From Ostreococcus lucimarinus (taxonomy: Eukaryota): a DNA stretch of 64,000 nucleotides. The DNA lies in NCBI GenBank assembly GCA_000092065.1, contig CP000599.1. One strand, 5' to 3'. A program made the position numbers and the translations under genes. Under the pieces are notes generated by a model that saw only the letters and a list, made by a program, of their open reading frames with translations, was not told where the DNA came from and made no database searches. Position 1 is the stretch's first letter. Each line of letters starts with the position of its first letter. Of this stretch, positions 2,699 to 33,581 are shown in pieces.

Positions 2699-2810
2699 GC
2701 GCGCGCACCCGGAGACGCGCCGCATTCCTCGACGCCGAGCTCGTCGGTTTCGCGCGCGCACGCTCGAACCGCGACCGCGAAACGAAAGAATATATAATCT
2801 CTCATCATGG

Positions 2811-3173
2811 GTGCGTGCGCGATGCGCGATAGCGACGTCGTCGGTGCCGCGAACGAGGCGACGATCAGAGACGATTCGACGACGCATTCGAATGCGCGCG
2901 AAGCGACGCGGCGCGAAGCGACGCGGCGCGCGGTCGCGCGCGACGATCGGCGACGGCGAGTGATGGTTGGAAAAGTTTTACATCGTTTGTGGCGCGCGCG
3001 GGGGGCGTCGCGTCGTCGCGGGCGCGGAGAGGACGGACGCGGTCGAGGGGGACGACGCGACCCGCAATTCGACGAGCTGGGGCGGGTCGGTTGATTGAGG
3101 GTTGAAGTGGGATTACACTGTTTACGCATACGCGCTCGGGTGACTGACGAAGACGCGAATCGCGCGCGCGCAG
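2811..3173 (+). other. Putative spliceosomal intron immediately after the AMT start codon
   Basis: ATGG|GTGCGTGCGC donor at 2811, GTGACTGACGA branch at 3141-3150, GCGCGCAG acceptor ending at 3173. The phase is compatible (G+CT=Ala) and gives MAVGDDVDINFMLTNTF... Confidence 0.4.
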
Positions 3174-4471: not shown

Positions 4472-4627
4472 ACGTGCGCTCCACGGGTTGAACGAACGTA
4501 TCGTCGGTCAGAAATTTTCTGAGCACGTACATCCCGCTCGTTTCTGCGAAGAAGGCGCTCGTACGCACGCGTTCGCGCGTCTCTTTTTCACTCTTAACCA
4601 TCACAAAACAGATTCACCTTCCTCTTT

Positions 4628-4632
4628 TGTAA
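4628..4632 (+). terminator. TGTAA candidate poly(A) signal for AMT
   Basis: ttttgtaaaacc lies in the AT-rich convergent gap between AMT and the HAD gene. Confidence 0.35.
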
Positions 4633-4670
4633 AACCGATGATTACTATACCTATTATTATTACACCTCGA

Positions 4671-17833: not shown

Positions 17834-18920
17834 TCACGTGAGATCGTCCTCCTCGGCTTCCACGGCGGCGACGATGCGCTTCTTAGCCTTTAATAGCATC
17901 GTCGTCTTCCAACCGTCGAGCCTGGACATGGAGTCGAATTCCGCCACCGCGCTCGAAAACGCGTCTTGATCGCCCGCCTCGAACGCCTTGGCGCAATTCA
18001 CCAACAAATCGCGCTCGCGCGACGACGCGAACGCCGGGTCGCTCTCCTCGTATCGCTCGCACGCGTTCAGCACCCCGACGGCGTCGTTCCAGCACAATCG
18101 ACAGATCCCCGCCTGTAAAAAGTACCCCTTCACCGAGAACCGCAGTAAATTGTTATTCAACGACGCGCGTCCGACGTCCTCAAAAATCTCCGTCGCCTCT
18201 TCGAATCGATCGAGCTTGCTCGCCAGCAGCGTCGCCGCCTTCAGTTTACAATTATTCCCCGTCGTCCGTCCCGAGTCGCCCTCGCCGTCGTACAGATCCG
18301 CCGCGCTCGAGAACGCCTCCACCGCGCGTTCATCCCCCTCCGCCGTCCCCAGGCTCTCGTACGTCTCGCCGATCTCCTTCAAATGTTTCGCCGCCTGCGC
18401 CAGTCGTCCCAATCGCGCGTACGCGTTCGACGCTTCCCTGTAGTGTCCGATCGCCTCCTCGTTCGCCCCGCACTTCTTCAGCATCTGCGCGCAGTCCACG
18501 TGCGCCGACGCCGCGTCGTGCGTCTCCTTCGTCGTCGCTCTGCACGTCGCCAGCGCCTCGTACGCGTCCGCCGCTCTTCGCCAGCTCTTCGCCAGCTTAA
18601 ACGACGTCGCCGCGCGCTCGTACAGCTCCGCCGCCTCCTCGTGCCTGTTCGCGCCCGTGATCGCGCTGAAGAATCCAACGCTCTGTCGTCGTCGTTCAGT
18701 CGGTCGCGCCGTCGTCAGTCGTCCTTCGTTCCTTCGTTCGTTCGTTCGTTCGTTCGCATTCATTCATTCATTCATTCGCGTCGATCGTTCGCGTCGAGCG
18801 CGCGCGTTCGCGCCGCTCGAGCGCGTCCGATCGCGCGCTCGCGCGCGCGCGTCGCACCCTGAGTTTCTTGGCCGCCGCGGCGCAGAGCGCGTCGCCGCGC
18901 GCGAGATCGTCGTCGCCCAT
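17834..18920 (-). CDS. ASNAP: Alpha-soluble NSF attachment protein (alpha-SNAP), two exons (18858..18920 and 17834..18682)
   Basis: Exon 1 is MGDDDLARGDALCAAAAKKLR. Exon 2 is SVGFFSAITGANRHEEAAELYERAATSFKLAKSW... This matches the canonical SNAP N-terminus (MGD...KKL..F......AA.L...AAN.FKLAKSW). TPR-like repeats run throughout. Confidence 0.88.
18683..18857 (-). other. Spliceosomal intron (175 nt) in alpha-SNAP
   Basis: AGG|GTGCGA donor, two CGACTGA(C/A) branch candidates, GACGACAG acceptor. It contains (GAAT)n(GAAC)n microsatellites. Confidence 0.8.
18722..18776. repeat. Compound tetranucleotide microsatellite (CGTT)n(CATT)n inside the SNAP intron
   Basis: ccttcgttccttcgttcgttcgttcgttcgttcgcattcattcattcattcattc. 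Confidence 0.9.
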
Positions 18921-18985
18921 CGATCGATCGATGCGTCGCGCAGTGCCGCACACGACGACGCGACGCGCCGACGCGTCGACGTCGA

Positions 18986-19771
18986 ATGCGCGCCGCGACG
19001 CGCGTCGCGACGTCGCGCCCCGTCCCTCGCGCGTCGCGCTCGAGCGCGTCGCGCGTCGCGGCGACGCGAAGATTCGACGCGCGACCGAGCGACGACGTCG
19101 ATTCGGCGCAAAGATTCGACGCGCGTATGGCGCTCGTGGCGCTCGCGACGGTCGCGGCGACGCGATGCGAACTTCTAAAGCCGCCGGCGTGCGAGGCGGC
19201 GTTCATGGAGGCGGTCGAGGGGTCGGCGTCGGTGGTGACGCCGGCGGCGCCGTCGAGGCTGAAGCCGCGCGCGCGCGACGTCGTGCTGGAATCGAAATCC
19301 GAACACGCGGGCGAGGATCTGCGGCGAGAGGACCTGCGAGGGGCGATCTACGCCGAGGCGGATTTGCGACGGAGCGATCTGCGGGAGAGCGACGCGCGAG
19401 GGGCGGTGTTCAGTCGAGCGGTGATGCCGGGGGTGGACGCGCGAGACGCCGATTTTTCAGACGCGATGTTCGATTACGCGCTGCTGCGAGGGAGCGATTT
19501 CACGAATAGCGTGTTCGTGGGGGCGAATTTCGTGCGGGCGGATCTGGGGGAGGTGGTGGCGACGAACGCGGACTTCACGGAGGCGGTGATCGATCGGTAT
19601 CAGACGCTGTCGCTGTGCGAACGGGCGTCGGGGACGAATCCGTACACGGGGGCGAACACGCGGGATTCGTTGCTGTGCGACTTGGTGAAGCCGTACGCGG
19701 GCTCGGGCGAGGGAGGGAAGGTGGTGGCGACGAAGACGTCGGGGACGTGGGGTGGGGGGGGGCGCGAGTGA
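18986..19771 (+). CDS. Thylakoid-lumen-type pentapeptide-repeat protein (TL15/TL17-like)
   Basis: Tandem A(D/N)LxX pentapeptides: EDLRREDLRGAIYAEADLRRSDLRESDARGAVFSRAVMPGVDARDADFSDAMFDYALLRGSDFTNSVFVGANFVRADL. The N-terminus looks bipartite, with an RR-containing presequence and then the hydrophobic MALVALATVAA. Confidence 0.8.
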   Translation: MRAATRVATSRPVPRASRSSASRVAATRRFDARPSDDVDSAQRFDARMALVALATVAATRCELLKPPACEAAFMEAVEGSASVVTPAAPSRLKPRARDVVLESKSEHAGEDLRREDLRGAIYAEADLRRSDLRESDARGAVFSRAVMPGVDARDADFSDAMFDYALLRGSDFTNSVFVGANFVRADLGEVVATNADFTEAVIDRYQTLSLCERASGTNPYTGANTRDSLLCDLVKPYAGSGEGGKVVATKTSGTWGGGGRE

Positions 19772-19781
19772 GCGCGGCGCG

Positions 19782-19786
19782 TGTAA
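19782..19786 (+). terminator. TGTAA candidate poly(A) signal for the pentapeptide-repeat gene
   Basis: gcgtgtaattacc, 11 nt after the stop. Confidence 0.35.
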
Positions 19787-19851
19787 TTACCTACGTAGCT
19801 ATCCACTAAATCGACGCTAAGCGTCCTAATAAGACTACGTCGCGTCGCCGT

Positions 19852-22800
19852 CTACAGCGTCACGTGCGCGACGCGCTGCGGGAAGCGATACACCGTTCCG
19901 TCGCCGCTCAGACAGCTCGCCAAGTACGCCCCCAAAGACGCCGAACTCGACATCATGGTGTCTAAACTCAACGCGTCGTCCATGGCGACGCCGTGCAAGT
20001 AAGGCTCCAAGTTTTCGACGGCGACGGCGGTGACGTGAGACTTCACCTCGACGTTGTACGACGCGCCGAGCGCGCTCAGCGCGTCGCAAATTTGTTCGGC
20101 GCACGTCAAGAAGACGTCGTCGGCGGGCGCGGTGTCGTGGGACCGTCGTTCACCGCGGCGTTTCTTCTCGGCGTGGTACATGGCGAAAAATTTGGCGTCG
20201 TGACTTTGTTCCGTCGCCGCGGCGATGAACCCCAAACCGCCGGGTCGAAGCGACTTGCGGAAATTTCGCAGCGCGGAGTGTAATTTCCCGCGAGGCGTCG
20301 TCGCGAATCCGTGCGCGGTGTACACGATGTCGTAGCCGATCGAAGGGTCAGCGGCACCGCCGCCGTCGCGAGTGTCGTCCTGCGTCAGCGCGTCCGCGTA
20401 ATCCTGCGGAGGCACGAACGTCGTCGTCGATCCGCGATGGAGCGTGCCGACTCTAAACGGCGGCACGAGCGACGTCGCCGCCGTGTGCAACGCCACCGCG
20501 GAGACATCCAGTAGATCGACGCTGACGTATAAGCGTTCCATCGCGGGATCGATCAACGGTGACATCATCGCCTCGCGCGTGGCGTCCGCGATATGGCGGC
20601 ACAACGCCGCAGAAAACGTGCCGACGCCGCACGCCATTTCGAGCGCCGTGAGCGCGTCGGATGGGATCGACTGACGCACCGTCGTGTTGGCGTACACTGA
20701 AGACGTCACGGATGCCACGTCGCTCGCGTCGACGTCACTTTCGCCGCGCGCCCAAGCTTTCTCAATATCGCCGTCCTCCCCGTCGTCGACGTGTTCGCGG
20801 ATGCGTTCGCGCTGAAGCGACGCGAACGTCTTCCACCAGTCGTGCGATTCAGTGATGGATTGCACGTCTGAAAACGTCGCCATGCAATACCCGGGCGTAC
20901 GACGAAGTCGCTCGTGTTTTGCGGTGTCGTGCTCTTGCTCCAACATTTCGGCGATGCGTTCGGGCGCGTTCGACCCGTCGTCCACGGACGTCGCCGTGGT
21001 GGCGGTGACGTCGCCGCCGTAGTCGCTGTAAAATTCGTCGTCGACGATGGATTGAATGTCGGATTCATCGTCGTTTTCGAACCCGTCGTCTTCGGAATCC
21101 GATAATAACGGACGTCGCTCGATTATCGTCTCTTCTTCGTCGTACGCTTTTGCACGAAGGGGTGTCGGTGTCGCGCGCGCGCCGCTCGAAACGTTCGGAG
21201 ACGTAGACGTCTTCGGAGCCGCGCGATCCACCGCACGAGATATCCGAGCGCACTCCCCAGCGCTCACGACGCCCACGTTTTCCATCCAACCGGCGCGCAA
21301 CAACGCGCGATACGTCAATGTTTTCACAAAGTCTTGCAGCGCGAACGAGCACAAGGCGAAGACAAACACAAACGCGATGCGCGCCCACGAAATCGACGCC
21401 AACGCCATGAAGGGCCAATTCGCGCTCAACAAGCAACTCATCGTCAATGACGTGGCGAACGCAGCCAAAACTAGCCCCCCTGGGCGTCGCTCGAGGAACG
21501 ACTTGTGCGCACGAGCGCTGAAAACCGTCATCGCGTCCGTGAGCGTGAGCTTGAGAAACACACAGGTTTGCACCTCGCCGTACGGTAATCGAGCGCTCAG
21601 CGCCACGCGCAGTAACGCCAGAGTCGTGAAACACGCCGTGAAGCCGCTCGCCGCGCTGACGAAGACGTGCGGAAGTAAATTCCAACGCTCTGGTAAACGG
21701 CTCGGTGAGGTGTGGTCGTACGCGGTGCCGATGACGACAACGTCATTGAGCGCGGCGTTGACGCACAACGCGATGACTGGGAGCGTAAACGTATCCGGCG
21801 CGGAGACGTCGAAAGATTTTGGACTCACCACGAGGGCGCCAAATACAAAAAATCCCAAGACGTGCGCCGTGCACGTCGCACGAAATACAATGTATTCACG
21901 CACGCGCGCGAACATCACTCGGGCAGAGAGAACCGCGTGCGCCAAGGCTGCGAGCGACGGCGCGGCTAATATGATGTCGGACGCGCATCGCGCGGCGTCG
22001 CTAGCGTTATTCATCGACACTCCCACATGTGCGAGCTGAAGCGCCGCGCTATCGCTCGCGCCATCACTCACTAAACCGACGATGTCACCCTTAGCGCGAT
22101 GGGCCTTCACCAGCGCGTGCTTGTCCTCGGGTAGCATTTCGGCGTAAGCCTTCATGCGATCGAGCTTGTCGCAGTGCGCCGGGCTCAGCACGCTCGCGCG
22201 AAGAGGCACGTACGGTACATCGCTCGGAGTGTGGATGATTCCGTCAGAATTCTCGCTCAGATCGAAACCAATCTTATCGCACGCCACGCGCGCGACCCGA
22301 GCGACATCACTAGTGACGATTTTTACGTCGACGCCGAGCGATTGCATCGCGTGCAGCATCTCGTGCGCGTCCTTGCGACGCACGTCGTCGTACATAATCA
22401 AACCCAGACCGACGTACGAATCGTCGTGGGTTTTCGAACAAGCCACCAAGAGTGCGCGAGAAATCACTCCCGCCGCCGCGCGAGATTGCAACTGCTCGAG
22501 CGCGTCGTCGACGATGGCTTGCGCGCTCTCGCGGTTGACACACTTTTCTAGCGCGACGTCGATCGGGCCCTTCATCACGCGAAACGTCGATCCGTCGTTC
22601 GCTCGACGGATGATGCTTTCACTGAATTTTCTCTTTGCCGAGACATCGAAAGGTCGATGCTCTACGAGTTCGAACTTCCCTTCCAAGTGTCGCGCGACGT
22701 CAAAGGCGTCTAAAATCATCGCGTCCACGGCGTTTGTCGGCGGCTCCTTCCATCGCGTTCCCATCGCCGCCGCCGTCATGACGTCGTTTTCGCTGACACC

Positions 22801-24228
22801 CTCGAGTAAAGGCACCGTGGGAACGATCGAGCTCAGTTTTGCGGCATCTTTAGTCAACGTTCCGGTTTTATCGACGCACAAGACGTTCATGAGAGCCAAA
22901 TCTTCGATGACGCGCGCGCGCGCGACGATGCACGATTTTTTCGCCAACGCGCGAACGCCCAAAGAGGTCGTCGTGTGCACGATCGTTCGAATCGCCAAAG
23001 GTGTGCTGATGATCAAAAGAATGACCGCAAACGATAGCGAGCGGAAGAAGTCCTTCCCCCCCACGATGAGGTACAAGAATACGCTCAGCGAGGACGCGCA
23101 TCCGACCACCGCGAACGAGCGCGTGACGATGGACACGTTCGCGTCGAACGCGGACATTTCCTTGCGAGATGAATCTCTGGCTCGCATCACGCGCGCCGCG
23201 CGCCCAGCGAATGTGTGTTTTCCGGTGCGCACCACCATCGCTCTCGCGGAGCCGCGCTTGACGACGCCTCGCGTGAACAACGGTTCGCCCTTCGCGACGT
23301 CGACGGTGTGCCTGTCGCCCGTGATCAAAGAATTATCCAAAACCAACGTCTGCGGTCCGCACGACACGCAATCCGCGGGCACCGCACACCCGGGCGTGAG
23401 CGTGACGATGTCTCCCGGCACGAGAAAACGCGCGTCGACGACGCGCGACGTCCCCGATCTCGTCACCGTCGCTCGAGCGTCCACGAGCTCCGCCAACTCC
23501 CGACTCGCCCGCACCGCGTCCTCCCTCTCGACGTGCGACACCCACGCGTTACCGAAAACCAACCCCAACAAAATCATCGCGTTGAACGTCGGATCGTCGT
23601 GCACGCGCGCGTTAAAACTCTGCGCCAATTCCAACGCCGCCCCCGTCGCCAACACCCGCGCCGTCGGATTCCTAATCTCCGCGCGCAGAAACCGCGCGAA
23701 CCGCGCGCGCGCGCGTCCCGCGTCCCCCCCCCCCGCGCTCGCCTTCCGCGCCCGCGCGCCGTCGTCCCCATCCTCGCCCGTCGCCCAATCGTTCGCGCCG
23801 TACTTTTCCAACCGCCGCGCCGCCTCGCGTTCTCGCAAGCCGCCGTCGACGTCCGCGTCCAAATCCTCCTCGTCCACCGCCGTCTCCTGCACCCCGTGGT
23901 CTCGCGCGCGCGACATCTCGTCCATCATTTTCCGCGCGTCCATCGCCGCCGCCGTCGTCGCGCTCGAGTCGTTCGCGCGCGCGCGTCGTCCGTCGTCGCC
24001 GTCGTCGCCCGCGGCGCCGTCGTCGCCCGCGGCGCCGAGCGCGCGCACCCATCGTTCAATCTTTTTCGTCACCGGCGCCTCGTCGCGCGCCGTCGCGCGT
24101 CCCAGATCATCGCTCAGCATGCGTTCGTAATCGTCGCCGATCGGTGACGTCGGGTCGTCGTCGCGCGCGTCGCGCGTCGTCGAATTCGTCGCCGCGTCGT
24201 CGCAATCATCGCGTTCGCGTCGTCGCAT
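19852..24228 (-). CDS. Divergent P-type (P3A H+-ATPase-like) ATPase fused to a C-terminal class-I SAM-dependent methyltransferase domain
   Basis: One uninterrupted frame. Pump motifs are LEKYGAN, VPGD, PAD, ITGDRHTV (in place of TGES), CVDKTGTLT, KGPID, KIVTSD and SDGASDSAAL, with 10 TM-like helices. After about 125 aa of acidic linker come the MTase motifs LEMACGVGT (motif I), VDLLDVS, YDIVYTAHGF and LRPGG. The ORF-track start at 24498 runs through an AT island. The first plausible ATG is at 24228. Confidence 0.75.
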   Translation of the reverse strand: MRRRERDDCDDAATNSTTRDARDDDPTSPIGDDYERMLSDDLGRATARDEAPVTKKIERWVRALGAAGDDGAAGDDGDDGRRARANDSSATTAAAMDARKMMDEMSRARDHGVQETAVDEEDLDADVDGGLREREAARRLEKYGANDWATGEDGDDGARARKASAGGGDAGRARARFARFLRAEIRNPTARVLATGAALELAQSFNARVHDDPTFNAMILLGLVFGNAWVSHVEREDAVRASRELAELVDARATVTRSGTSRVVDARFLVPGDIVTLTPGCAVPADCVSCGPQTLVLDNSLITGDRHTVDVAKGEPLFTRGVVKRGSARAMVVRTGKHTFAGRAARVMRARDSSRKEMSAFDANVSIVTRSFAVVGCASSLSVFLYLIVGGKDFFRSLSFAVILLIISTPLAIRTIVHTTTSLGVRALAKKSCIVARARVIEDLALMNVLCVDKTGTLTKDAAKLSSIVPTVPLLEGVSENDVMTAAAMGTRWKEPPTNAVDAMILDAFDVARHLEGKFELVEHRPFDVSAKRKFSESIIRRANDGSTFRVMKGPIDVALEKCVNRESAQAIVDDALEQLQSRAAAGVISRALLVACSKTHDDSYVGLGLIMYDDVRRKDAHEMLHAMQSLGVDVKIVTSDVARVARVACDKIGFDLSENSDGIIHTPSDVPYVPLRASVLSPAHCDKLDRMKAYAEMLPEDKHALVKAHRAKGDIVGLVSDGASDSAALQLAHVGVSMNNASDAARCASDIILAAPSLAALAHAVLSARVMFARVREYIVFRATCTAHVLGFFVFGALVVSPKSFDVSAPDTFTLPVIALCVNAALNDVVVIGTAYDHTSPSRLPERWNLLPHVFVSAASGFTACFTTLALLRVALSARLPYGEVQTCVFLKLTLTDAMTVFSARAHKSFLERRPGGLVLAAFATSLTMSCLLSANWPFMALASISWARIAFVFVFALCSFALQDFVKTLTYRALLRAGWMENVGVVSAGECARISRAVDRAAPKTSTSPNVSSGARATPTPLRAKAYDEEETIIERRPLLSDSEDDGFENDDESDIQSIVDDEFYSDYGGDVTATTATSVDDGSNAPERIAEMLEQEHDTAKHERLRRTPGYCMATFSDVQSITESHDWWKTFASLQRERIREHVDDGEDGDIEKAWARGESDVDASDVASVTSSVYANTTVRQSIPSDALTALEMACGVGTFSAALCRHIADATREAMMSPLIDPAMERLYVSVDLLDVSAVALHTAATSLVPPFRVGTLHRGSTTTFVPPQDYADALTQDDTRDGGGAADPSIGYDIVYTAHGFATTPRGKLHSALRNFRKSLRPGGLGFIAAATEQSHDAKFFAMYHAEKKRRGERRSHDTAPADDVFLTCAEQICDALSALGASYNVEVKSHVTAVAVENLEPYLHGVAMDDALSLDTMMSSSASLGAYLASCLSGDGTVYRFPQRVAHVTL

Positions 24229-24396
24229 TTCGTCGTCTCGCGTCGTCGCGACGCGGTTCGAGACGCCCGCGCGCGAGTATTTTTCGCGTGCGATCGCGTT
24301 CGACGCGATTCGCGATCGCGATTCGCGATCGCGCAAAGCGCGGCGTCGCGAGCCGTCGCGCTCTGACGCGAATCGCGTCGCGTCGGGCCGTCGTGA

Positions 24397-24462
24397 TGTA
24401 TCATAAACCCTATATTTACGTATTGTACACTTTTTAGTACTATGTAGATGTAGATTTTGGGT
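24397..24462. promoter_or_regulatory. AT island between divergent ATPase-MTase (-) and uL3 (+) genes
   Basis: tatcataaaccctatatttacgtattgtacactttttagtactatgtagatgtagattttgggtaaaac. It has two GTAC cores, a TACGTAT and an AAACCCTA telo-box. Confidence 0.4.
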
Positions 24463-24527
24463 AAAACGAGCGCCCCGATCGCGCGCGCGCGTCCGCACAC
24501 GACGCCGAGACGCGCGCGCGCGCCGTC

Positions 24528-25610
24528 ATGCTTCGTCGCGCCTGCGCGCGCGCGGCGACGCGCGTCGCCGCGCTCGTCGCGCCGAGCCGCGCGATCGGCG
24601 CGCCGCTCGCGTCGCCGCGCGCGCGATTTCCGTCGCCGCCGCAACTCGTCGCGTCGGCGAATCATCGCCTCGCGAGCGCGCGCGCGGCGGCGCCTCGACC
24701 GTCGAGCGCGGGAATCGCGCGCGATCGACGCTCGGCGCGATCGAACGCGGTCGAGCGCGCGACGTACGCGACGTCGGCGCGCGCGGTGGACGCGGCGCAC
24801 CGAAGGGCGAACGCGACGCGCGCGGCGACGCGAGAGGCGCGCCGAAGGACCGGCGCGGTGGCGATCAAGACCGGGATGACGTGCGATTGGGACGCGCGAG
24901 GGACGAGGATCCCGCTCACGGTGCTGTGGATCGACGATTGCGAGGTGGTGGCGGCGAAGACGTCGAGCGGGGCGGACGGGTACGACGCGGTGCAGGTGGG
25001 ATACGGAAGCCGAAAGCCGAAGCAGGTGACCAAGGCGGAGCTGGGGTACTTTGTGCGAAGGAAAACGAACATTAAGAGAGCGCTGTGCGAGTTTCGGACG
25101 AGCGCGGACGGGGTGCTGGCGCCGGGGACGGCGATCACGGCGGCGCACTTCGCGGCGGGGCAGTACGTGGACGTGCAGGGCGTGACCAAGGGGAAAGGGT
25201 TTCAGGGACCGATGAAGCGGTGGGGGTTCTCGGGACAGCCCGCGAGTCACGGGAACACGAAGAAGCATCGCGCGCACGGGAGCATCGGGCAGTGCCAGGA
25301 CCCGGGGCGAGTTTTTAAGGGGAAGAAGATGGCGGGTCGGATGGGCGGCAGGACGCGCACGGTGCAGAGCGCGTACGTGTACAAGGTGGACACGGAGAAG
25401 AATTTGGTGTACGTCAAGGGACAAGTCCCGGGGAACGCCGGAATGGCGGTGAAGATCAGAGACAGCCTGCGGAAACCGCCGGCGCTGGACGGGAGCGAGG
25501 TGCCGTTTCCGACGGCGGTGGCTGGCGAGCACCCGACGGGGGTCTTCGTCGCGCCGCCGCAGGGCGCGGATCCGTTCGGTAACCCCGAACCGGTGAAGCA
25601 GCGCGCGTGA
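24528..25610 (+). CDS. MRPL3: Organellar (mitochondrial-type) ribosomal protein uL3
   Basis: KGKGFQGPMKRWGFSGQPASHGNTKKHRAHGSIG...GRVFKGKKMAGRMGGRTRTVQSAYVYKVDTEKNLVYVKGQVPGN, preceded by an Arg/Ala-rich presequence. Confidence 0.9.
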   Translation: MLRRACARAATRVAALVAPSRAIGAPLASPRARFPSPPQLVASANHRLASARAAAPRPSSAGIARDRRSARSNAVERATYATSARAVDAAHRRANATRAATREARRRTGAVAIKTGMTCDWDARGTRIPLTVLWIDDCEVVAAKTSSGADGYDAVQVGYGSRKPKQVTKAELGYFVRRKTNIKRALCEFRTSADGVLAPGTAITAAHFAAGQYVDVQGVTKGKGFQGPMKRWGFSGQPASHGNTKKHRAHGSIGQCQDPGRVFKGKKMAGRMGGRTRTVQSAYVYKVDTEKNLVYVKGQVPGNAGMAVKIRDSLRKPPALDGSEVPFPTAVAGEHPTGVFVAPPQGADPFGNPEPVKQRA

Positions 25611-25890
25611 GCGCGAGCGCGAGACGCGGACTATCTAGCTACTTAGACGACGGCGAGACGTTCGTTCGGTGTGATTGAATAGAAGTCGTAGTAACGACGG
25701 AACCCCGTGCGAATGAATATTAAATGAAACGCGCGCGCGCGCGTTCGCCTATTGATACCGACTAGAATGCATGCATGCACGCGCGAACGAACGAACGATC
25801 GATCGAACGAGCGAGCGAACGAACCCCCGTTCGCCCGCCCGCGAGCGCGCCTCGCGCTCGCGCGACCGCGTCCGCTCGCGCGCGCCCCCC

Positions 25891-26553
25891 TCACCGCTCT
25901 CGCGGCGCCTCCAACAACAACGGCTTGAGTATGTCCCAAGTCTTCGCCAACACCGCCGTCTTATAGCACAAAAACCCACAAAACGTCGCCCCGTACGAGA
26001 AATCAAACGGCAAATCCAACCGATTCCAGCACGCCGTGAACACGACGAGCGCCGTCGGCACCAACAGTCGTCTCTGCAGCAGCGCCCTCGAGTACACGCC
26101 GCCGACTTTGCCGAACGCGCCGCTCAGCATCGCGCCCACGTCCGTCACCGGTTCGTACACCAAATTTCGCGTGTAATCCGCCTCGCTGACGTTCCCATTT
26201 TCTAAGCTCTCGCTGACGCCGTCGACGTAGTCTTGGAGCAATCTGAGGTAGCCGAGCGCGCCCGCCGAGCCGAGCGCCGCGCTCAGCCCCGGCGCGACGC
26301 CGTACCCCAGCAGGCAGTACGCCGACAGCGCCGCGCCGTGCGCGAGCGTCGTCGAGCTCAGCTCCCGCTTCAACGCGACGTACTCCTCGTCGCTCATTCG
26401 CTTCTCATCGAGCGCGTCCGCGGGCGTCGCGCGACGCGGCGTCGCGATGTTTCCGCGCCGAGGGTTTCGTCGATTCGCATTCGGCGCCCGCGCGGCGCGT
26501 CCGAGCGCGCGCGCGTCCGTGCGCGTCGATCGCGACGTCGACGACGATCGCAT
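25891..26553 (-). CDS. Four-TM membrane protein, CGL160/ATP-synthase-protein-I-like (tentative)
   Basis: EYVALKRELSSTTLAHGAALSAYCLLGYG...LGYLRLLQDYVDG...RRLLVPTALVVFTACWNRL...FCGFLCYKTAVL. I chose the start at Met 26553 because ORF start 26844 would overlap the PIS gene. The family call comes from memory of CGL160-type sequences. Confidence 0.55.
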   Translation of the reverse strand: MRSSSTSRSTRTDARALGRAARAPNANRRNPRRGNIATPRRATPADALDEKRMSDEEYVALKRELSSTTLAHGAALSAYCLLGYGVAPGLSAALGSAGALGYLRLLQDYVDGVSESLENGNVSEADYTRNLVYEPVTDVGAMLSGAFGKVGGVYSRALLQRRLLVPTALVVFTACWNRLDLPFDFSYGATFCGFLCYKTAVLAKTWDILKPLLLEAPRER

Positions 26554-26694
26554 CTCCGCCGCGACCGCGCTCGGGCGCGTCCAGACGGCGTCCAGCGCGC
26601 GCGACAGTGCGGATTGCGAAATTGCACTTTTTGGGGACGCGCCGAACGCGCGCGCGTTCGCACTCCTCGACGCGCCCCGGACGCGCCGCGCGTC

Positions 26695-27474
26695 ATGCCT
26701 CCGCGCAAAAAAGCATCTTCGACCGACGCGCGCGGCTCGCGCGCGCGCGCGCCGGCGAAATCGGCGTCCAAGGGCGACGACGCGACGCGAACGCGACCGC
26801 GCGGTCGAATCGACGCGCCGCGCGCATCCTTCTTCTCGCGCCACGCCAACGTGTACGCGTACGCGCCGAATCTCGTCGGGTACGCCCGCATCGCGCTCGC
26901 GATCTGCGCCCTGAGGACCGCGTTCGCGGACGTGCGGACGTGTCTGCTGTGTTACTTCGCGTCGTTCGCGTGCGACGAGCTCGACGGCCGCCTCGCGCGG
27001 CGATACGATCAGTGCTCCGAGTTCGGTCGAGCGCTGGACATGATCACCGATAGGCTGGCGACGTCGGGATTATTGGTCGTGCTCGCGATGGAGCATCGAG
27101 AGTGGTACGCGACGTGCGTGGGATTGCTGGCGCTGGACGTGGCGTCGCACTGGACGCACGCGTACGTCCAGCTCATGATCGGCGCCGACGGTCACAAATC
27201 CATCGGCGACGAGTCCTTCTTTCTGTTGCGGTGGTACTACGGGAATCGGATATTTATGGGCGCGTGCTGCGTCAGCGTGGAGGTGCTGTATCTGTGTTTG
27301 CACGCGATGCGCGCGGATCCCGCGTTCGTCGGTTTTCGCGCGCTCGGGCCGCTGACGTTTTCGGCGCTCGCGCGTCTCGCGATTCCCGGGTTCGTCGTCA
27401 AGCAGATGGCCAACTGCGCGCAGTTGTTCGAGGCGTGCGAAACGTTGGTGAGGATCGATCGCATGGCGATTTAG
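26695..27474 (+). CDS. PIS1: CDP-diacylglycerol--inositol 3-phosphatidyltransferase (phosphatidylinositol synthase)
   Basis: CDP-alcohol phosphatidyltransferase motif DELDGRLARRYDQCSEFGRALDMITDR, preceded by YAPNLVGYARIALAI. The start MPPRKK at 26695 is in frame with ORF 26233..27474. Confidence 0.88.
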   Translation: MPPRKKASSTDARGSRARAPAKSASKGDDATRTRPRGRIDAPRASFFSRHANVYAYAPNLVGYARIALAICALRTAFADVRTCLLCYFASFACDELDGRLARRYDQCSEFGRALDMITDRLATSGLLVVLAMEHREWYATCVGLLALDVASHWTHAYVQLMIGADGHKSIGDESFFLLRWYYGNRIFMGACCVSVEVLYLCLHAMRADPAFVGFRALGPLTFSALARLAIPGFVVKQMANCAQLFEACETLVRIDRMAI

Positions 27475-27495
27475 CGCGGCCGCGACGCGTCCGGA

Positions 27496-27500
27496 TGTAA
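27496..27500 (+). terminator. TGTAA candidate poly(A) signal for PIS
   Basis: ccggatgtaaaacg, 22 nt after the stop. Confidence 0.35.
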
Positions 27501-27648
27501 AACGAATGAAATCCGTCTTCGACGCGCGTCGCTTCGCGTCGTCCCGCGGCGCGCTGGGTGTTACCCCGCACACCGTCGCGCGGACGCGCGCGTCGCGCGA
27601 TATTTCGACGCCGAGTCGACGAACGCGTCGTCGACAAAGCTCGGCGTC

Positions 27649-29019
27649 ATGCAGAGCGCCGAAAAACGCCCGCGGTACGCCCTGATCGACTGCGAAGACG
27701 ACGCGAGGTGGCACGGCTTGGCCCAGTGCATCGTCAAACTTTTCGGCCGCGACGACGAAATCTGGCACCACTACCGCGCGTGCGACGGCGAGTTGCCGTC
27801 GAAAGAGATGTTCGCGACGTACGACGGCGTGGTGGTGTCGGGGAGCTCGCACAAGGCGGAGTGGGACACGAACGGGACGCCGCGGTGGACGCGAGCGCTG
27901 GGCGAGTGGCTGCGACGCGCGACGGACGATCGACATCCCGAGTACACGCGCGACGCCGACGGAGGAAAGAAAAAGGTGAAAATATTAGCGATGACGTTCG
28001 CGGGGTACCTGTGCGCGATGGCGAACGGGGGGGCGGTGGGGATGATTCCGAACGGCGGACACGTCGTCGGGGCGACGGCGATGAAGACGACGGAGGCGTG
28101 GCGACGATCGAAAGCGTTCGTCAAGGCGCGGGAGACGTACGGTGAACCGATGGATGGTAAGGGAGAGACGCTGGTGGTGCATCAAAATCGCGCGCAGAGG
28201 ATTGAGCGATTGCCCGAGGGCGCGACGGCGACGACGACGAGCGGAGACGGGGAGATTGAAATGTGGACGACGCGCGATGGACGCTGTTTAGCGTGGCAGC
28301 ACTCGTTCAGCGATGGCGTCGCGAGCGTGTTGTCGCACAAAGTCGAGAGCGGGCTCGAGGCGAGGCGGTCCGAGAAGAGCGCGGCGGCGGCGGGGGACGT
28401 AAAGCCGGATGATTTGCCAAACAACGACGCCGGGTTTCTCATCGGCGTCGCGCGCGCGTTTTTGCGCGACGGCGCGCTCGCGAGCGACGAAGACGAAGAA
28501 TATTTACGCACTCGCCGCCGCGAGGCGCGCGAGACTTTGTCGTGGGCGGCGCGACGGAGAGAGGAAATCATGGCGGCGCGCGCGGCGCGCGGCGCGCGGC
28601 CCGGCGCGGCCAACGCCAAACGCGACGCCGCGAACGATGGTTCGACCGCGCCAGCGATCGTCGAGCGAGAAGAATCCGCGCGCACGCAAGCCATGGCCGC
28701 GCGCGCGTTCACCAAAATCGCCGACACCGTCAACGCCGAGCTCTCGCTCGCCGCGAGCGAGGTTCGATTTCTCCAAAACGCCAACGAAACCGCCGCTCGC
28801 GAGTACGACGCCGTCGGCGAATCCATCGCCGACTTGCACGTCTTCATCGGCGCATTAAAAGCCAAGGACGAGGCGATGAAACCAAAGTTAGACGCGATCT
28901 TAGCCATCGAAGGCGAGGTGGACGCGTTGGAGACGCTCGCGCGCGCCGTCGACAAGCGCGTCTCCGCGCTCGAGCTTCGTCTCAAATCCATCAAGTCCAA
29001 GCGCGCGAGCGCGACGTGA
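27649..29019 (+). CDS. BLOC1S2: Fusion protein: degenerate class-I glutamine-amidotransferase-like domain + BLOC-1/BORC subunit 2 (BLOS2) domain
   Basis: The N-terminal half follows the GATase1 layout (YALIDCEDD...YDGVVVSGSSH...KILAMTFAGYLCAMANGGAV...LAWQHSFS), but the nucleophile Cys and the His of HPE are substituted. The C-terminal roughly 95 aa align without gaps to my recollection of human BLOC1S2 (ELS/TxxxSExxxxLxNxN...Y...L.P.LD.I..IE..V.ALE..A...D....LE..K). Confidence 0.7.
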   Translation: MQSAEKRPRYALIDCEDDARWHGLAQCIVKLFGRDDEIWHHYRACDGELPSKEMFATYDGVVVSGSSHKAEWDTNGTPRWTRALGEWLRRATDDRHPEYTRDADGGKKKVKILAMTFAGYLCAMANGGAVGMIPNGGHVVGATAMKTTEAWRRSKAFVKARETYGEPMDGKGETLVVHQNRAQRIERLPEGATATTTSGDGEIEMWTTRDGRCLAWQHSFSDGVASVLSHKVESGLEARRSEKSAAAAGDVKPDDLPNNDAGFLIGVARAFLRDGALASDEDEEYLRTRRREARETLSWAARRREEIMAARAARGARPGAANAKRDAANDGSTAPAIVEREESARTQAMAARAFTKIADTVNAELSLAASEVRFLQNANETAAREYDAVGESIADLHVFIGALKAKDEAMKPKLDAILAIEGEVDALETLARAVDKRVSALELRLKSIKSKRASAT

Positions 29020-29043
29020 GCGCCGCGCCCGCGCGCGTGCCAT

Positions 29044-29048
29044 TGTAA
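29044..29048 (+). terminator. TGTAA candidate poly(A) signal for the GATase-BLOS2 gene
   Basis: gccattgtaaattatt, 25 nt after the stop. Confidence 0.35.
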
Positions 29049-29160
29049 ATTATTATTTTAAACCAGCGCTCGCTCGCGCGTTAGACGCGTTCCAATCGCC
29101 GCTCGCCTCGTCGAACGCTCGCCTCGCGTCCGCACACCGCGACGCCGCCCATCCCTCGCG

Positions 29161-29526
29161 ATGTCCGATCGCGTCCCCGACGCCCTCGACGCCGTCACGA
29201 ACGAAGATCGTTTCACCGTCGAGCTCGAGTTCGTGCAATCGCTCGCCAATCCGCGCTACGTCCACTTCTTAGCCTCAAAGGGCGTCCTCAGGGATGACAG
29301 ATTCATCGCGTATCTCCGCTATCTGCGCTACTGGGAGCGCCCGGAGTACGCGAAATTCATCCTCTACCCCCACTGCCTGCGGTTTCGAAGGCTCCTGCTC
29401 GACGACGCCTTCCGCGTCGCGATGGAGAACCCGCGAAACGCCGAGCGCGCGTTCAAGGCGCAGTTTGAACGCTGGAGCGCGCGCGGCGCGGCGCCGAGCC
29501 GCGCCGACGCGGACGCGAACGCGTGA
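29161..29526 (+). CDS. MED31: Mediator complex subunit 31 (SOH1)
   Basis: RFTVELEFVQSLANPRYVHFLASKGVLRDDRFIAYLRYLRYWERPEYAKFILYPHCLRFRRLL is the canonical MED31 core. Confidence 0.92.
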   Translation: MSDRVPDALDAVTNEDRFTVELEFVQSLANPRYVHFLASKGVLRDDRFIAYLRYLRYWERPEYAKFILYPHCLRFRRLLLDDAFRVAMENPRNAERAFKAQFERWSARGAAPSRADADANA

Positions 29527-29650
29527 CGGTTCGCGCGATGCGAGCGCGAAAAAGAGGGATTCGCGTCGCCGCGCGTCGACGACGACCCTCGCGCGTCGGC
29601 GCCGCTCGGCGCCGCGTCGCGCGTTGAAATTACACCGCGCGCGGCGCTGA

Positions 29651-29673
29651 TTTAGGGTTTAGGGTTTAGGGTT
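29651..29673 (+). repeat. Interstitial plant-type telomere repeat (TTTAGGG)x3 / tandem telo-boxes
   Basis: tttagggtttagggtttagggtt. It lies 125 nt after the MED31 stop and 38 nt before the ATG at 29711. Confidence 0.95.
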
Positions 29674-29710
29674 CGCCGCGCGTCGACGCCGCACACGCCG
29701 ACGCGGCGCC

Positions 29711-30430
29711 ATGGCGTCCGCGGACGACCCCTCGCGCGCGCGCTTCGGCGCCGCCATGCTCGACGGCTTCGCCGTCGACGTCTCGCACCAGGAGATCGAG
29801 CGCGTCGTCGTCGAGCTCGAGGAACTGTACCGAAGCCAACCGGGCGAGTGGCTGCCGATCGCCGGCATCGGCGACTACCTCGCGCGCGAGCTCGGATACG
29901 AGGACCTGGACGAGTTCGAGGACGCGCTGAAGAGCGATTTCGCCGCCTTCGTCGGGAAACTGCCGCACGTGGTGATCTCGCGCGTGGAGAGCGAACTGAC
30001 GCCGGGGACGTTTCGGGACGTCTTCAAGGTGACGACGCCGGCGGCGACGGGAAAAGCGGCGAAACCGCGCGTCATGCGATTGCGGGTGCGAAACAGAGAG
30101 GATCTGTGGCGAGTGTTCATGAAATCGCCGAACACGGCGCTGGAGATTCCGGAGATTGATTTTTACGTCGGCGGCGACGCGAAGCGCGCGGTGGACTCGG
30201 TGTACAACCACGTCGCGGCGTGCGTGTTCAATCTCGAGACGCACGTCGCGCACATGGCGACGAGCGCGGAAACCGAGGATGAGCGTCGAGGGATCTTGGA
30301 GACGTGCGAGGCGCTGCGAGGGATGTTGGATTTAGAGCGGGAGTTTACGCTCGTCGCGCGAGACGCCGACGGCGCGTGCGCGTTCAAACCGGACGACGGC
30401 GTCGAGATCGAGTACGTCGACGACGCGTGA
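29711..30430 (+). CDS. Hypothetical conserved-looking acidic protein
   Basis: 239-aa ORF with ATG at 29711 and coding-like composition (GEWLPIAGIGDYLARELGYEDLDEFEDALKSDF...). No family recognised. Confidence 0.6.
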   Translation: MASADDPSRARFGAAMLDGFAVDVSHQEIERVVVELEELYRSQPGEWLPIAGIGDYLARELGYEDLDEFEDALKSDFAAFVGKLPHVVISRVESELTPGTFRDVFKVTTPAATGKAAKPRVMRLRVRNREDLWRVFMKSPNTALEIPEIDFYVGGDAKRAVDSVYNHVAACVFNLETHVAHMATSAETEDERRGILETCEALRGMLDLEREFTLVARDADGACAFKPDDGVEIEYVDDA

Positions 30431-30672
30431 TCGAGCGCCGTCCATCGTAAAAAATGTATTAGCGCGCTTGTAACGCCGGCGCACGCTAGCTCGAACCGCG
30501 CGCTTCGATCGCGCGTCCCGTCCCGCGTCCCGAGCGCGTCCCGAGCGCGTCCCCGTCCCGCACACCTCGACGTCTCGCGACGCCGCCGCGACGCGTCGCG
30601 CCGCGACGACGCCGACGTCGACGACGCGCGCGCCGAGCGTCGCGAGACGCGCGAACCGCGCGATCGCGCGCG

Positions 30673-31646
30673 ATGCGTCCGAGCGGTCGACTTTTGCGCG
30701 CCTTCAAGGGGTGGTTGGACACGCGCGCCGTCGTGCGCGTCGCCGGCGCGGACGCCGCGGCGTTTCTGCAGGTGCGCTCGATGTTTACGTATCGCCATCG
30801 TTTCAAAACTGACGCGACGACCAGGGCGCGGTGACGAACGACGTGCGCGCGCTGCGCGAGGGCGGCGACGCGGCGTACTGCGCGACGCTCACGCCGAAGG
30901 GAAAAATCTTCGCCGACGCGTTCGTTCGACTCGCCGGGAGCGAATCGGATGAATTTTTATTGGACGTCGATCGAGAAAAGTCGAGCGAATTTTTGCGCGC
31001 GCTCAGGATGCTGAGCCTGAGGAAACGGGTGACGATCGAGGACGCGAACGAGCATCGCGTCGTCGTCGCGAGCGCGGACGCGGACGTCGGGGATTCGAGC
31101 GCGCGCGCGGTGCGGAGGGACGAGCGATTGGAACAATTAGGGTTTAGGGGTATAGTGCCCGCGTCCGACGCGGCGTGGCGCGACGCGGTGGCGGACGCGC
31201 ACGCGCGAACGCGAATCGCGCTCGGCGTCGCCGAGGGCGCGAGCGAGCTCGCGAACGCGTTACCGCTCGAGTGCAATTTCGACGCTTTGAACGGCGTGAG
31301 TTTCACCAAAGGGTGCTACGTCGGGCAAGAGAACACGGCGAGGCAGCGGTTTCGAGGGGTCGTGCGCAAGCGCATCGCGCCTTTCGTTGCGATCGAACCC
31401 GGCGCGCGCGCGCCGAGCGTCGGGGGAAAAATCGTAAACGAACGCGGCGACGTCGTGGGTGATGTCATCGCGGCGATCGAAGACGAGGACGCGGTCTTGG
31501 GTTTGGTGCGCGCGCGCATGAGTTTCATTCGCGCGCACGTTGCGGGCGAACCAGGGTCGGCGTTTCGAATCGCCGACGGCGCGCGCGTCGGCGTCGAGCC
31601 CCCGAGTTGGTGGCCGACCGAGTGGCTCGACGCCGCCGAGGAGTGA
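30673..31646 (+). CDS. IBA57: Folate-binding YgfZ/IBA57 (CAF17) family Fe-S cluster assembly factor, two exons (30673..30771 and 30825..31646)
   Basis: Exon 1 is MRPSGRLLRAFKGWLDTRAVVRVAGADAAAFLQ. Exon 2 is GAVTNDVRAL...ATLTPKGKI... with the signature FTKGCYVGQENTARQRFRGVVRKR. The joined length is 921 nt. Confidence 0.8.
30772..30824 (+). other. Spliceosomal intron (53 nt) in IBA57-like gene
   Basis: CAG|GTGCGC donor, AAACTGACG branch at 30806-30814, GACCAG acceptor ending at 30824. Confidence 0.75.
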
Positions 31647-31728
31647 AGCGCCGAGGAGGAAAGAGTAGCTGCGTTTATAGAATCGTGCGTGCGCACGAGC
31701 TTTAGGTTTTATCACAAATCATTCGTTC

Positions 31729-32835
31729 TCATTCGTCCTCCTCGTCGTCCACGACCAACGCGCGTTTCTTTCGCTCCTTGGGCGCGCCGACGGCTTCGTC
31801 TTCGTCTTCGTCCAACGAGCCCGCGGCGACGTCCTGTTCCATCGCGCCCGCACCATCGCTACCGGCCGCACCATCGTTCTCCTCGGCCTCTAAGAAATCG
31901 GCGTCCATCCGCGCCGCGCCCCCTTCCGCGTCGACGTCGCCGCCGGCGTCGTCGCGTCGTTCGTAATACGACTCCGTGTACCCGCGATCGTTTCTCCCCC
32001 CCGCCGACCACATCCCCGTCCGCTCGCGGTCTTCCCGCATCATCTTCGCCTGTTTCCTCTCCAACGCCGCGCTCTCCCTCGCCGCGCGCTCTAGCTCCGC
32101 GTCCAACGCCTCCTTCTCTCGCTCCGGATCGACGCGCGACACGTACGCCATCGTCCGCGTCGCCCTCGATCCGTGCTTCTTATCGATCGCCGCCGTCAAC
32201 CTCTTGTGCGTCCGCGAGTCCAACGTCGCGGGATTAAACGTCATCTTTGTCGTCAACCGTCGCTGCGCCTTCATCAACCCTTGTTTCCGCACGTACAAGA
32301 ACGAATCCGCGTCCGCCACCGCCCGTTCGTCGCATCGCAGGTACTCGTCGCCGACGACCAAATGCGTCGTTCCATCGTCCCATCGCACGTAATACGCGTT
32401 ACTCTCCGCCTCACCCGTGCTTTCATTCATCCTCCATCGCACCGTGTTCTCGTTCGAGGTCCTGATGCGCGTGACGCCGTCGACGTCGACGAATTCCTCG
32501 CGTTCGCCGTCGTCTCGATGCGTCGCCGCGTCGAAGGGTTTGGGCTCGGCGCCGAAGATGTTGCTCAATTTCGCAATCTTCGTCTCGTCCTCGATCGTCT
32601 CGCGCCCCGCTTCGGCGCTCGGCAGCTCTAATCGCAACGGTTCGCCCTTCGCTCGCGTCGCCGGGTCGTCCTCGTCGTTTTCCGCGTCGTCCGGGAGCTC
32701 TAAAGACGATTTAAACGTGGATTCGCGCCCGCGATCGTCGCGGTTTTCGAGCGATTCCGTCGCGACGCGGTCTCCGTCGTCGTCGTCTTCGCTGTCGGAA
32801 CCAAAAATGTTCTTCACCAAATCCACGTCCGCCAT
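31729..32835 (-). CDS. LEO1: RNA polymerase II-associated factor LEO1 (Paf1 complex)
   Basis: Leo1 core NTVRWRMNESTGEAESNAYYVRWDDGTTHLVVGDEYL...LTTKMTFNPATLDSRTHKRL, with acidic termini. The start is MADVDLVKNIFGSDSEDDDD at 32835. Upstream ORF sequence overlaps the GNAT gene and is not coding. Confidence 0.85.
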   Translation of the reverse strand: MADVDLVKNIFGSDSEDDDDGDRVATESLENRDDRGRESTFKSSLELPDDAENDEDDPATRAKGEPLRLELPSAEAGRETIEDETKIAKLSNIFGAEPKPFDAATHRDDGEREEFVDVDGVTRIRTSNENTVRWRMNESTGEAESNAYYVRWDDGTTHLVVGDEYLRCDERAVADADSFLYVRKQGLMKAQRRLTTKMTFNPATLDSRTHKRLTAAIDKKHGSRATRTMAYVSRVDPEREKEALDAELERAARESAALERKQAKMMREDRERTGMWSAGGRNDRGYTESYYERRDDAGGDVDAEGGAARMDADFLEAEENDGAAGSDGAGAMEQDVAAGSLDEDEDEAVGAPKERKKRALVVDDEEDE

Positions 32836-33005
32836 GACGACGAGCGAAACCGCGCGAGCGACGCTCCGAGGCGCGATCTGGGGCGATTCCGGGGACGCCG
32901 CGCGGCGACGCGGCGACGCCGCCGCGCGGCGCGCGGCGCGAGCGACGATCTCGCGTCGCAAAACGCGGTTTCGACGTCCGAATAAATGAATAAATTTAAA
33001 TGACG

Positions 33006-33581
33006 CTATTTTACACCGCGCGGCGGCGCTTCGTCTTCGTCGCGATGCCGCGCGCACTCGAACCACGCGTCGCGGCCGTGCGTCACGCTTGACTCGCCCA
33101 AACACCGAAACCCACCGCGACGCTCGTAAAACTCGATCAGCGCGCGCTTGCACAGCAACCTGATCGTCAGCACTTGATCGCGCGCGTCGCCGAAGACGCG
33201 CGCGTCGCGTCGGTCGTCGGCGAAGCCGATCCAGTCGTCGACGTAGCGCCGCAGCGCGGCGCCGCCGAAGCCGCGGCGTCTCGCGCTCGGCGACGCGCAC
33301 ACGCTGTGCACGCACAGCGTCCGCCCGAGCGGGTCGTGATTGGTCATCGTCGCGGCGTCCAGGGCGTCGCGCGCGGTGAGCGTGCCGCAGACGTACGCGA
33401 CGACGGCGCCGTCGAGCGCGGCGACCATGAAGAATTCGCGCGCGTCGGTCGCGCGGGCGCGAAGCGTCGCGGCGGACGCGGCCTCGTCCGCGGGGTAGCT
33501 CGCGGCCTCCATCGCGGCGATGGCGTCGAGATCGGCGTCGTCGACGGCGCGGAACGTCAGGCGGTCGACGTCGGCCGACAT
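33006..33581 (-). CDS. GNAT-family N-acetyltransferase (arylalkylamine N-acetyltransferase-like)
   Basis: EAASYPADEAAS..., LCVHSVCASPSARRRGFGGAALRRYV (acetyl-CoA-binding R/Q-x-x-G-x-G/A) and LIEFYERRGGF. Confidence 0.8.
   Translation of the reverse strand: MSADVDRLTFRAVDDADLDAIAAMEAASYPADEAASAATLRARATDAREFFMVAALDGAVVAYVCGTLTARDALDAATMTNHDPLGRTLCVHSVCASPSARRRGFGGAALRRYVDDWIGFADDRRDARVFGDARDQVLTIRLLCKRALIEFYERRGGFRCLGESSVTHGRDAWFECARHRDEDEAPPRGVK

Follow-up and report, generated by a model that had tools for sequence, protein, structure and literature searches.

Does a single gene in the green picoalga Ostreococcus lucimarinus encode both a proton pump and a methyltransferase? In the 64,000-nucleotide stretch of contig CP000599.1 (assembly GCA_000092065.1) analyzed here, which we refer to as the window, a minus-strand open reading frame (ORF) at 19852-24228 begins with an ATG at 24226-24228 and ends with a TAG (19852-19854), and the ORF listing gives it 1458 codons with zero internal stops. 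Read from this single open frame, the gene apparently lacks introns, and a metagenomic protein that is 99% identical (P0003) agrees with the complete coding sequence in both length and start. An original prediction, made from the sequence alone, had read this frame as a pump resembling the P3A plasma membrane H+-ATPases, an acidic linker, and a class I S-adenosylmethionine (SAM)-dependent methyltransferase (MT), and all of the motifs that it named are present where it had placed them, with LEMACGVGT exactly at 20617-20643. We find that its central claim, a P3A-like ATPase and a class I SAM methyltransferase in one polypeptide, is borne out by an open frame in relatives, conserved synteny, selection across the junction, and the fold of the MT. 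We consider it likely that the protein comprises a P3A-derived pump, a conserved juxtamembrane segment, a tether of ~80 amino acids (aa), and a complete class I MT and that it functions as a membrane-held small-molecule enzyme.

The proposed architecture recurs elsewhere, both in 22 clusters of orthologs and in three lineages that branch more deeply. The 22 full-length fusion clusters (1413-1581 aa) come from independent ENA, JGI, and Logan assemblies and share 99%, 92%, and then 57-61% identity with the window protein, and several of them carry precomputed methyltransferase Pfam matches. They were found when the pump half was used as the query; a query with the C-terminal 499 aa returned only two matches, with the acidic low-complexity linker having probably swamped the word index. 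Seventeen sequences were aligned, and this alignment underlies the ortholog motif and domain counts given below. When a profile of the C-terminal module was searched exhaustively, the three deeper lineages were recovered, namely P0153 (1211 aa; L008 3337-6972; a cluster of 8, of which one member lies on a 212-kb contig), P0140 (1561 aa; 28 members), and P0144 (truncated at its N terminus). L002 carries a further deep fusion. In a neighbor-joining tree, nine fused modules grouped together in 100/100 bootstraps and all ten did so in 65/100, and this clustering fits a single ancient fusion event.

Gene order provides independent evidence that these genes are orthologous. In the window, 17837-33315 carries, in order, genes for SNAP, a pentapeptide-repeat protein, the fusion, an organellar-type ribosomal L3, the green-lineage protein CGL160, a CDP-alcohol phosphatidyltransferase, BLOC1_2, and Leo1. 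The same order is found on L004, a 73-kb metagenomic contig of 57.5% GC whose fusion protein is ~60% identical, and L001 shares the L3-fusion-pentapeptide part of it. Since the order is shared, we regard the fusion genes of the window and L004 as orthologous, which indicates that synteny is conserved between two fairly divergent green picoalgae. Two sets of apparent stand-alone algal MTs were rejected as such. P0002 is part of an 1856-codon frame on L002 that is interrupted solely by a scaffold gap; its MT looked separate because the gene caller chose an antisense ORF (1328-3004, minus) over the pump, which lies in frame 2-5572 (plus). The short MT-only sequences P0137-P0142 are contig-edge fragments (contigs of 1.2-2.1 kb) from a divergent P0002-like group. 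In P0139 (L016 377-1492), which belongs to this group, C-terminal conservation is lost after ...LEAYLHG and the sequence then runs out of register; an intron in this lineage or a faulty assembly may account for the frame break.

Evolution across the junction supports the view that the pump and MT are co-translated as one protein. We estimated ratios of nonsynonymous to synonymous substitution (dN/dS) between the window and its 92%-identical ortholog L003, for which dS was uniform (0.13-0.19) outside the N-terminal tail. The ratio was 0.15 in the pump, 0.08 in the 30 residues that follow the last transmembrane helix (TM10), 0.37 in the tether, 0.05 in the MT lid, and 0.23 in the MT core, and the acidic insert of the MT was the only part that appeared neutral (1.09). 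All indels between these two sequences are whole codons. The tether ranges from 81 to 112 aa in the orthologs and is always in frame and stop-free, there is no Met between TM10 and motif I that is conserved among the orthologs, and P0006 has none there at all. By a rough estimate, ~180 stop-free codons in the correct frame have a chance of ~0.3% at this GC content, and the pattern recurs in every lineage sampled.

The junction itself has two parts. The predicted acidic linker is present, although its variable part covers ~80 aa rather than ~125 and is preceded by a conserved 30-aa segment. The variable part (aa 1006-1085; 20974-21213, minus strand like all parts of this protein) is an acidic, Ser/Thr-rich, flexible tether with 36% ortholog identity and 26% D+E. 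The segment before it (aa 976-1005; 21214-21303), which is juxtamembrane and 72% identical, is the most constrained stretch of the protein, and all fusion lineages, even those whose pumps are dead, carry the motif [VL]S..E..R[VI]S in it. It is possible that this segment is a docking or phosphorylation site. The three-part order that had been proposed for the protein holds, and the MT is somewhat longer than anticipated, at 373 aa (aa 1086-1458) rather than ~350.

The pump half is most closely related to the P3A proton pumps. Behind an acidic and poorly conserved N-terminal tail (aa 1-115; 23884-24228; 26% ortholog identity, dN/dS of 0.46, 25% D+E), the ATPase core occupies aa 116-975 (21304-23883) and contains the A, P, and N domains and TM1-TM10, as delimited by Pfam, AHA2 and Pma1 alignments, and TIGR01647. 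The predicted pump is readily recognized by Pfam E1-E2_ATPase (PF00122), which matched the window protein at 5.7e-42 (143.7 bits vs a cutoff of 28.1), and by the P-type ATPase model TIGR01494 (155.2 bits vs 62.3). The nearest solved structures are AHA2 (1.9e-73) and Pma1 (1.1e-70), ahead of the Mg2+, Ca2+, and Na+/K+ pumps, and the top NCBIfam model is the P3A equivalog TIGR01647 at 431.4 bits, with the runner-up family at 182. Both the AHA2 and Pma1 alignments extend through TM10. Ten membrane helices had been predicted, of which seven pass a simple hydropathy threshold and TM1, TM2, and TM8 are recognized only by alignment with AHA2.

Many residues needed by a working pump are retained in the window copy. 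The motif CVDKTGTLT lies at aa 451-459, with the phosphorylatable Asp present (D453) and DKTGT intact in the alignment (aa 453-457; 22858-22872). N227, which corresponds to the TM2 gatekeeper Asn106 of AHA2, is invariant in all 17 sequences, and D829, which corresponds to the TM6 proton acceptor/donor Asp684, is Asp in 16 of the 17, within an LND/LDD motif. The KGP lysine, the Asp and Arg of DVRR, and the second Asp of GDGxND are also kept. At the position of AHA2 Arg655, the window pump aligns a His, as does Pma1, and this Arg is reported to be absent from most chlorophyte P3A pumps (PMC3355532). On the other side of the ledger, TGES has become TGDR, DPPR has become DVRR, TGD has become TSD, and GDGxNDxPAL has become SDGASDSAAL. 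Most orthologs have TGER and TGD at the corresponding sites, DKTGT varies to DKTGV/A, DTTGT, and once ETTGT, and the first Asp of GDGxND is missing in 5 of the 17 aligned sequences. Given a core dN/dS of 0.15 and the intact key residues, it is plausible that the window copy is competent as a pump.

Past TM10, the resemblance to known pumps ends. When we looked for the plant regulatory (R) domain with its Regions I/II and YTV-COOH 14-3-3 site, AHA2 similarity stopped after TM10, and the MT tail stood in its place. The C terminus of the protein, AHVTL/M/I, hardly varies and places a Thr at the penultimate position (19855-19869 in the window), and we considered it as a pT-X-COOH 14-3-3 site. This candidate was rejected because the segment forms the buried last β-strand of the MT model, with a predicted local distance difference test (pLDDT) score of 98, and the AHVTL end is probably structural.

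Across the fusion lineages, the pump decays by degrees. The P0153 pump is fully canonical, with TGES, DKTGT, TGD, and GDGAND, and scores 657.7 bits against the TIGR01647 cutoff of 615.5. The window family has intermediate motifs, and the P0144 pump lacks TGD. The L002 pump has DDVGT, ATR, and GAGASN and lacks TGES, and in the P0140 pump, the phosphorylation motif reads DSEIL and the TM6 Asp is gone. The MT motifs, in contrast, are intact in all fusion lineages, from P0153 to P0140. Since the pump decays to a pseudo-ATPase while the MT does not, the function selected across the family would be membrane tethering of the MT. We infer from this series that a membrane-tethered methyltransferase is the constant feature of the family and that proton pumping is an ancestral, lineage-dependent extra.

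The original prediction would have failed if the C-terminal region lacked a methyltransferase fold, and a confident structural model contains one. AlphaFold modeling of the MT with an alignment of 10 sequences gave a pLDDT of 55, which rose to 88.1 (predicted template modeling score of 0.87) when bacterial homologs were added. In the model, a class I core of seven strands is accompanied by a lid of four helices and, between β6 and β7, by a helical cap; disorder is confined to the acidic insert. The structure matches of the model are exclusively class I MTases, the best being histamine N-methyltransferase (HNMT) at 11-13% identity. The helical N-terminal lid, also supported by the bacterial alignment, covers aa 1086-1145 (20794-20973; helices at pLDDT 87-95). 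The disordered insert follows at aa 1146-1188 (20665-20793; 20% identity, pLDDT 51-69), and the core, with its Rossmann-type seven-stranded sheet and cap, occupies aa 1189-1458 (19855-20664). The insert is 43 aa long in the window and 40-60 aa among the orthologs, is in frame and stop-free throughout, and corresponds to a gap in the bacterial rows of the alignment.

The residues expected to bind SAM are strongly conserved. In motif I, E-M-A-C-G-V-G-T-F (LEMACGVGT, aa 1196-1204), all 33 algal and bacterial sequences share the pattern C-G-x-G-x-F without variation, and the acidic Asp of DLLDVS after β2 is conserved in at least 90%. MT families were matched at E<=0.001 by 13 of the 17 orthologs (Methyltransf_23 in 13, Methyltransf_25 in 11, and Methyltransf_12 in 10), and gathering scores were passed by P0153 and the bacterial homologs (36-40 bits for Methyltransf_25 and 32-40 bits for Methyltransf_12). 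A PDB sequence search with the single MT sequence gave zero matches, and its best match with a profile was marginal (0.0035). Neither search matched HNMT, and the likeness to that family is one of architecture only. HNMT, 4VPMT2, JHAMT, TmtA/GtmA, SAMT, and HvrF are likewise capped small-molecule class I MTases that share only 10-17% identity with the module, and unlike the HNMT-type enzymes, the window module is covalently joined to a membrane pump. The module comprises an entire SAM-dependent class I methyltransferase of the HNMT-like type. Because its SAM-binding signatures stay under purifying selection in every lineage, it is most likely a functioning enzyme that methylates a small molecule and is kept at the membrane.

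The nearest stand-alone relatives of the MT, which had been thought a possible guide to its substrate, are bacterial. A profile of the algal module finds, at 1e-26 to 1e-13, bacterial proteins of ~250-310 aa (typically ~280) that are annotated just as "class I SAM-dependent methyltransferase," such as MCG8692717.1, MEM8573875.1, and WP_424044002.1. These enzymes align end to end with aa 1086-1458 at 21-32% identity, so that the homology is full length. Shared features include the lid helices (DY..L...DW), motifs I-III, LLD(P/V)S after β2, the motifs PPF, YD.V(W/Y)..H, and PGG.GFIA, and a C-terminal subdomain with LE.YL...DD..SLD.M...G.YL....Y.FPQ. Unlike the pump-fused algal module, the bacterial proteins occur on their own as soluble enzymes and have no acidic insert. 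The family is present in at least 317 GTDB species representatives, mostly marine or saline Alpha- and Gammaproteobacteria, and its carriers include Rhodovibrio sodomensis (DSM 9895; L057), Chromatocurvus halotolerans (DSM 23344; L076), Thiohalocapsa, and Sphingomonas sp. UV9 (L064).

In bacteria, the MT gene belongs to a recurrent cassette with the order PhyH-family dioxygenase, MT, (MFS transporter), and MT2. Among 80 bacterial loci, 74 encode a PhyH-family Fe/2-oxoglutarate dioxygenase, which lies immediately upstream and in the same orientation in 57 of 74 loci with room for it. A second, unrelated methyltransferase (MT2) is found in 67 of the 80 and an orthologous MFS transporter in 35, usually between both methyltransferases. 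Examples of the cassette are L017 2944-7068, L005 5744-9714, L012 5003-7815, and L057 at about 2541-5748. This arrangement probably marks an uncharacterized small-molecule pathway. Because PhyH, MT2, and often an MFS transporter are encoded alongside the MT in bacteria, the substrate is probably a small polar metabolite that is transported, and the gene context favors such a metabolite over a protein or lipid substrate. One Myxococcales metagenome-assembled genome encodes a 620-aa protein (P0184, MCB9570126.1) in which an EgtD-like histidine N-alpha-methyltransferase (Methyltransf_33, 1.8e-63) is joined to a second MT domain related to the algal module and its bacterial homologs. Taken with the HNMT fold match, P0184 offers a weak hint of imidazole or histidine-derived substrates.

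How does this protein compare with known systems? Like AHA2 and Pma1, it has the same domain order through TM10, DKTGT, and the equivalents of Asn106 and Asp684. It differs from them in sharing ~30% identity and in the altered TGES, DPPR, TGD, and GDGxND motifs of the window copy, and unlike the plant and fungal P3A pumps, it carries a 480-aa enzyme-bearing extension instead of an autoinhibitory C-terminal tail. To our knowledge, P-type ATPase-enzyme fusions are very rare; the flippase-cyclase chimeras of alveolates are the sole case known to us, and we know of no other well-documented eukaryotic P-type ATPase fused to a cytosolic enzyme than these P4-ATPase-guanylate cyclases. Some of their members have degenerate ATPase catalytic motifs. 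These chimeras of alveolates and stramenopiles (PMC6592433, PMC7858053, PMC13466520), the nearest analog in logic, combine a P4 flippase with a cyclase that has its own TM helices, whereas the protein described here combines a P3A pump with a soluble MT. They also have another taxonomic range, and their appended domains are unrelated in sequence to the MT.

A trace of the fusion exists in the literature. The original prediction knew of no described P-type ATPase with a methyltransferase, and our full-text literature searches found none; a 2012 footnote, the sole trace that they returned, does predate it in calling an Ostreococcus tauri protein a possible chimera (PMC3355532). In that study, the P3A pump that Pedersen et al. 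described as the most divergent of their set was O. tauri OtAHA1 (Q00RY3, Ot20g00330), which they called "a possible chimera"; its model has 1043 aa, of which ~200 C-terminal residues past the equivalent of AHA4-862 were unmatched, and no methyltransferase was recognized (PMC3355532). This mismatch begins exactly where the linker starts in the window protein, and OtAHA1 is the probable counterpart of the window gene. The same work lists Chlamydomonas Cre07.g316950 (1628 aa) as P3A-like, with low-complexity regions, and "possibly a pseudogene or chimera" (PMC3355532); this protein might be a chlorophycean member of the pump-MT fusion family. The JGI automatic name of close relatives is "H+-transporting ATPase," and the architecture is easy to miss because such names say only H+-ATPase and because prokaryotic gene callers can split genes. 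The pump-MT combination is conserved across several algal lineages, and we found no earlier description of it.

The N-terminal two-thirds of the protein derive from a plasma membrane-type (P3A) H+-ATPase, to whose C terminus the MT is joined, and we propose the following arrangement. Behind TM10, the C terminus of a P-type ATPase is cytosolic, which would place the MT on the cytosolic face, tethered by the flexible acidic linker at the site of the plant/fungal autoinhibitory tail, where SAM would be available. It would most likely methylate a small polar metabolite at the membrane, which would be made or modified there and then moved across it. The pump of the window copy may continue to cycle, possibly at a slow rate or under regulation, and otherwise it would act as an anchor or sensor.

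Several observations weigh against this proposal. The window MT alone scored 16-22 bits with Methyltransf_12/25/23, below the cutoffs of 27-30, so that the window sequence taken by itself only suggested a methyltransferase. The window pump and its orthologs (423-491 bits) fall short of the TIGR01647 cutoff of 615.5, and with TGES, TGD, and GDGxND altered, the window pump could be catalytically impaired already. The support for co-translation comes entirely from evolutionary comparison, and the full-length orthologs were recovered as long ORFs, which introduces an ascertainment bias. The curated NCBIfam models yielded no name for the MT, its PhyH partner, or the cassette. Finally, neither the 64-kb window nor the algal loci searched (L001-L004, L008, and L009) yielded homologs of PhyH, MT2, or the MFS transporter at E<=0.01, and what the gene context implies for bacteria may therefore not apply to the alga.

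Some of these points lend themselves to a different reading of the pump, namely that the window copy is a pseudo-ATPase without proton transport that serves as an anchor, scaffold, or sensor for the MT. A role of this kind has been argued for some P4-ATPase-guanylate cyclase chimeras. We hold it to be doubtful for the window but worth serious attention. The noncanonical TGDR, DVRR, TSD, and SDGASD, the low TIGR01647 score, the orthologs' tolerance of DTTGT, ETTGT, DKTGV/A, and the loss of the first GDGxND Asp in 5 of 17, and the clearly dead pumps of L002 and P0140 beside intact MTs are all consistent with it. However, the window copy keeps DKTGTLT, the KGP lysine, the Asp and Arg of DVRR, and the second of the two Asp residues in GDGxND, and it retains Asn and Asp at the proton site. 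In addition, TGE to TGD is a conservative change, and a core dN/dS of 0.15 is tighter than expected of a mere anchor. The same dead pumps bear on another notion, that the MT is a regulatory domain that replaced the R-domain and tunes the pump by binding SAM or S-adenosylhomocysteine or by methylating it. In its favor, the MT sits directly after TM10 in the place of the plant/fungal C-terminal regulatory domain, the adjoining juxtamembrane segment is under the tightest constraint in the whole protein, and neither a Region I/II nor a 14-3-3 site was reported for the O. tauri counterpart OtAHA1 (PMC3355532). Yet the MT is conserved even where the pump is dead, which would leave a pure regulator with nothing to regulate, and the putative substrate-cap elements common to the bacterial enzymes are conserved as well; we consider this explanation improbable.

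Two further alternatives concern the gene rather than the protein. Pump and MT might be adjacent genes that merely share a frame, with separate mRNAs meeting in the acidic region; GC-rich, gene-dense genomes do hold long chance ORFs, many of them antisense, and a prokaryotic gene caller did split the L002 homolog. That split is explained by the scaffold gap and the wrong-strand gene call, however, and the frame is open in the 22 clusters and three deeper lineages despite changes in linker length. With a linker dN/dS of 0.37, whole-codon indels, no conserved Met between TM10 and motif I, and zero in P0006, we assign this explanation almost negligible probability. In the other alternative, which we consider very unlikely, splicing would remove the acidic insert at 20665-20793 or some of the linker as an in-frame intron, leaving a shorter mature protein. 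The neutrality of the insert (1.09), its absence from the bacterial homologs, its disorder in the model, and the frame break in P0139, possibly an intron, could be read in this way. On the other hand, the insert is always stop-free despite lengths of 40 to 60 aa, and its D/E/S-rich composition resembles that of the linker and the N-terminal tail, as is typical of disordered coding loops.

Long Arg-rich antisense ORFs overlap real genes in these GC-rich genomes; one of them, of 658 aa, lies antisense to the pump in the window (22154-24130, plus). At 6727-12276 (minus), an ORF of 1849 aa has a SAP domain near its C terminus as its sole Pfam match.

Returning to the membrane-held methyltransferase, a broader and more tentative version of this proposal is that the family represents a P-type ATPase turned into an enzyme platform, the second independent case after the P4-guanylate cyclases, in which an ancestral working proton pump captured a bacterial-type small-molecule MT and has since decayed lineage by lineage, and in which the MT product is shared with the bacterial cassette chemistry. 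The decaying pseudo-ATPase would then position or gate the MT at the membrane. If this were true, a methylated compound would be common to abundant picoalgae and marine bacteria. A proton-pump-methyltransferase protein would couple membrane energetics or localization to SAM-dependent chemistry in a new way, and the series from canonical to dead pumps with an intact MT is a natural system for studying how a pump becomes a pseudo-enzyme. Solving either the algal or the bacterial system would probably reveal the substrate of both, which may prove to be a methylated, osmolyte-like compound of significance to the chemistry of the ocean.

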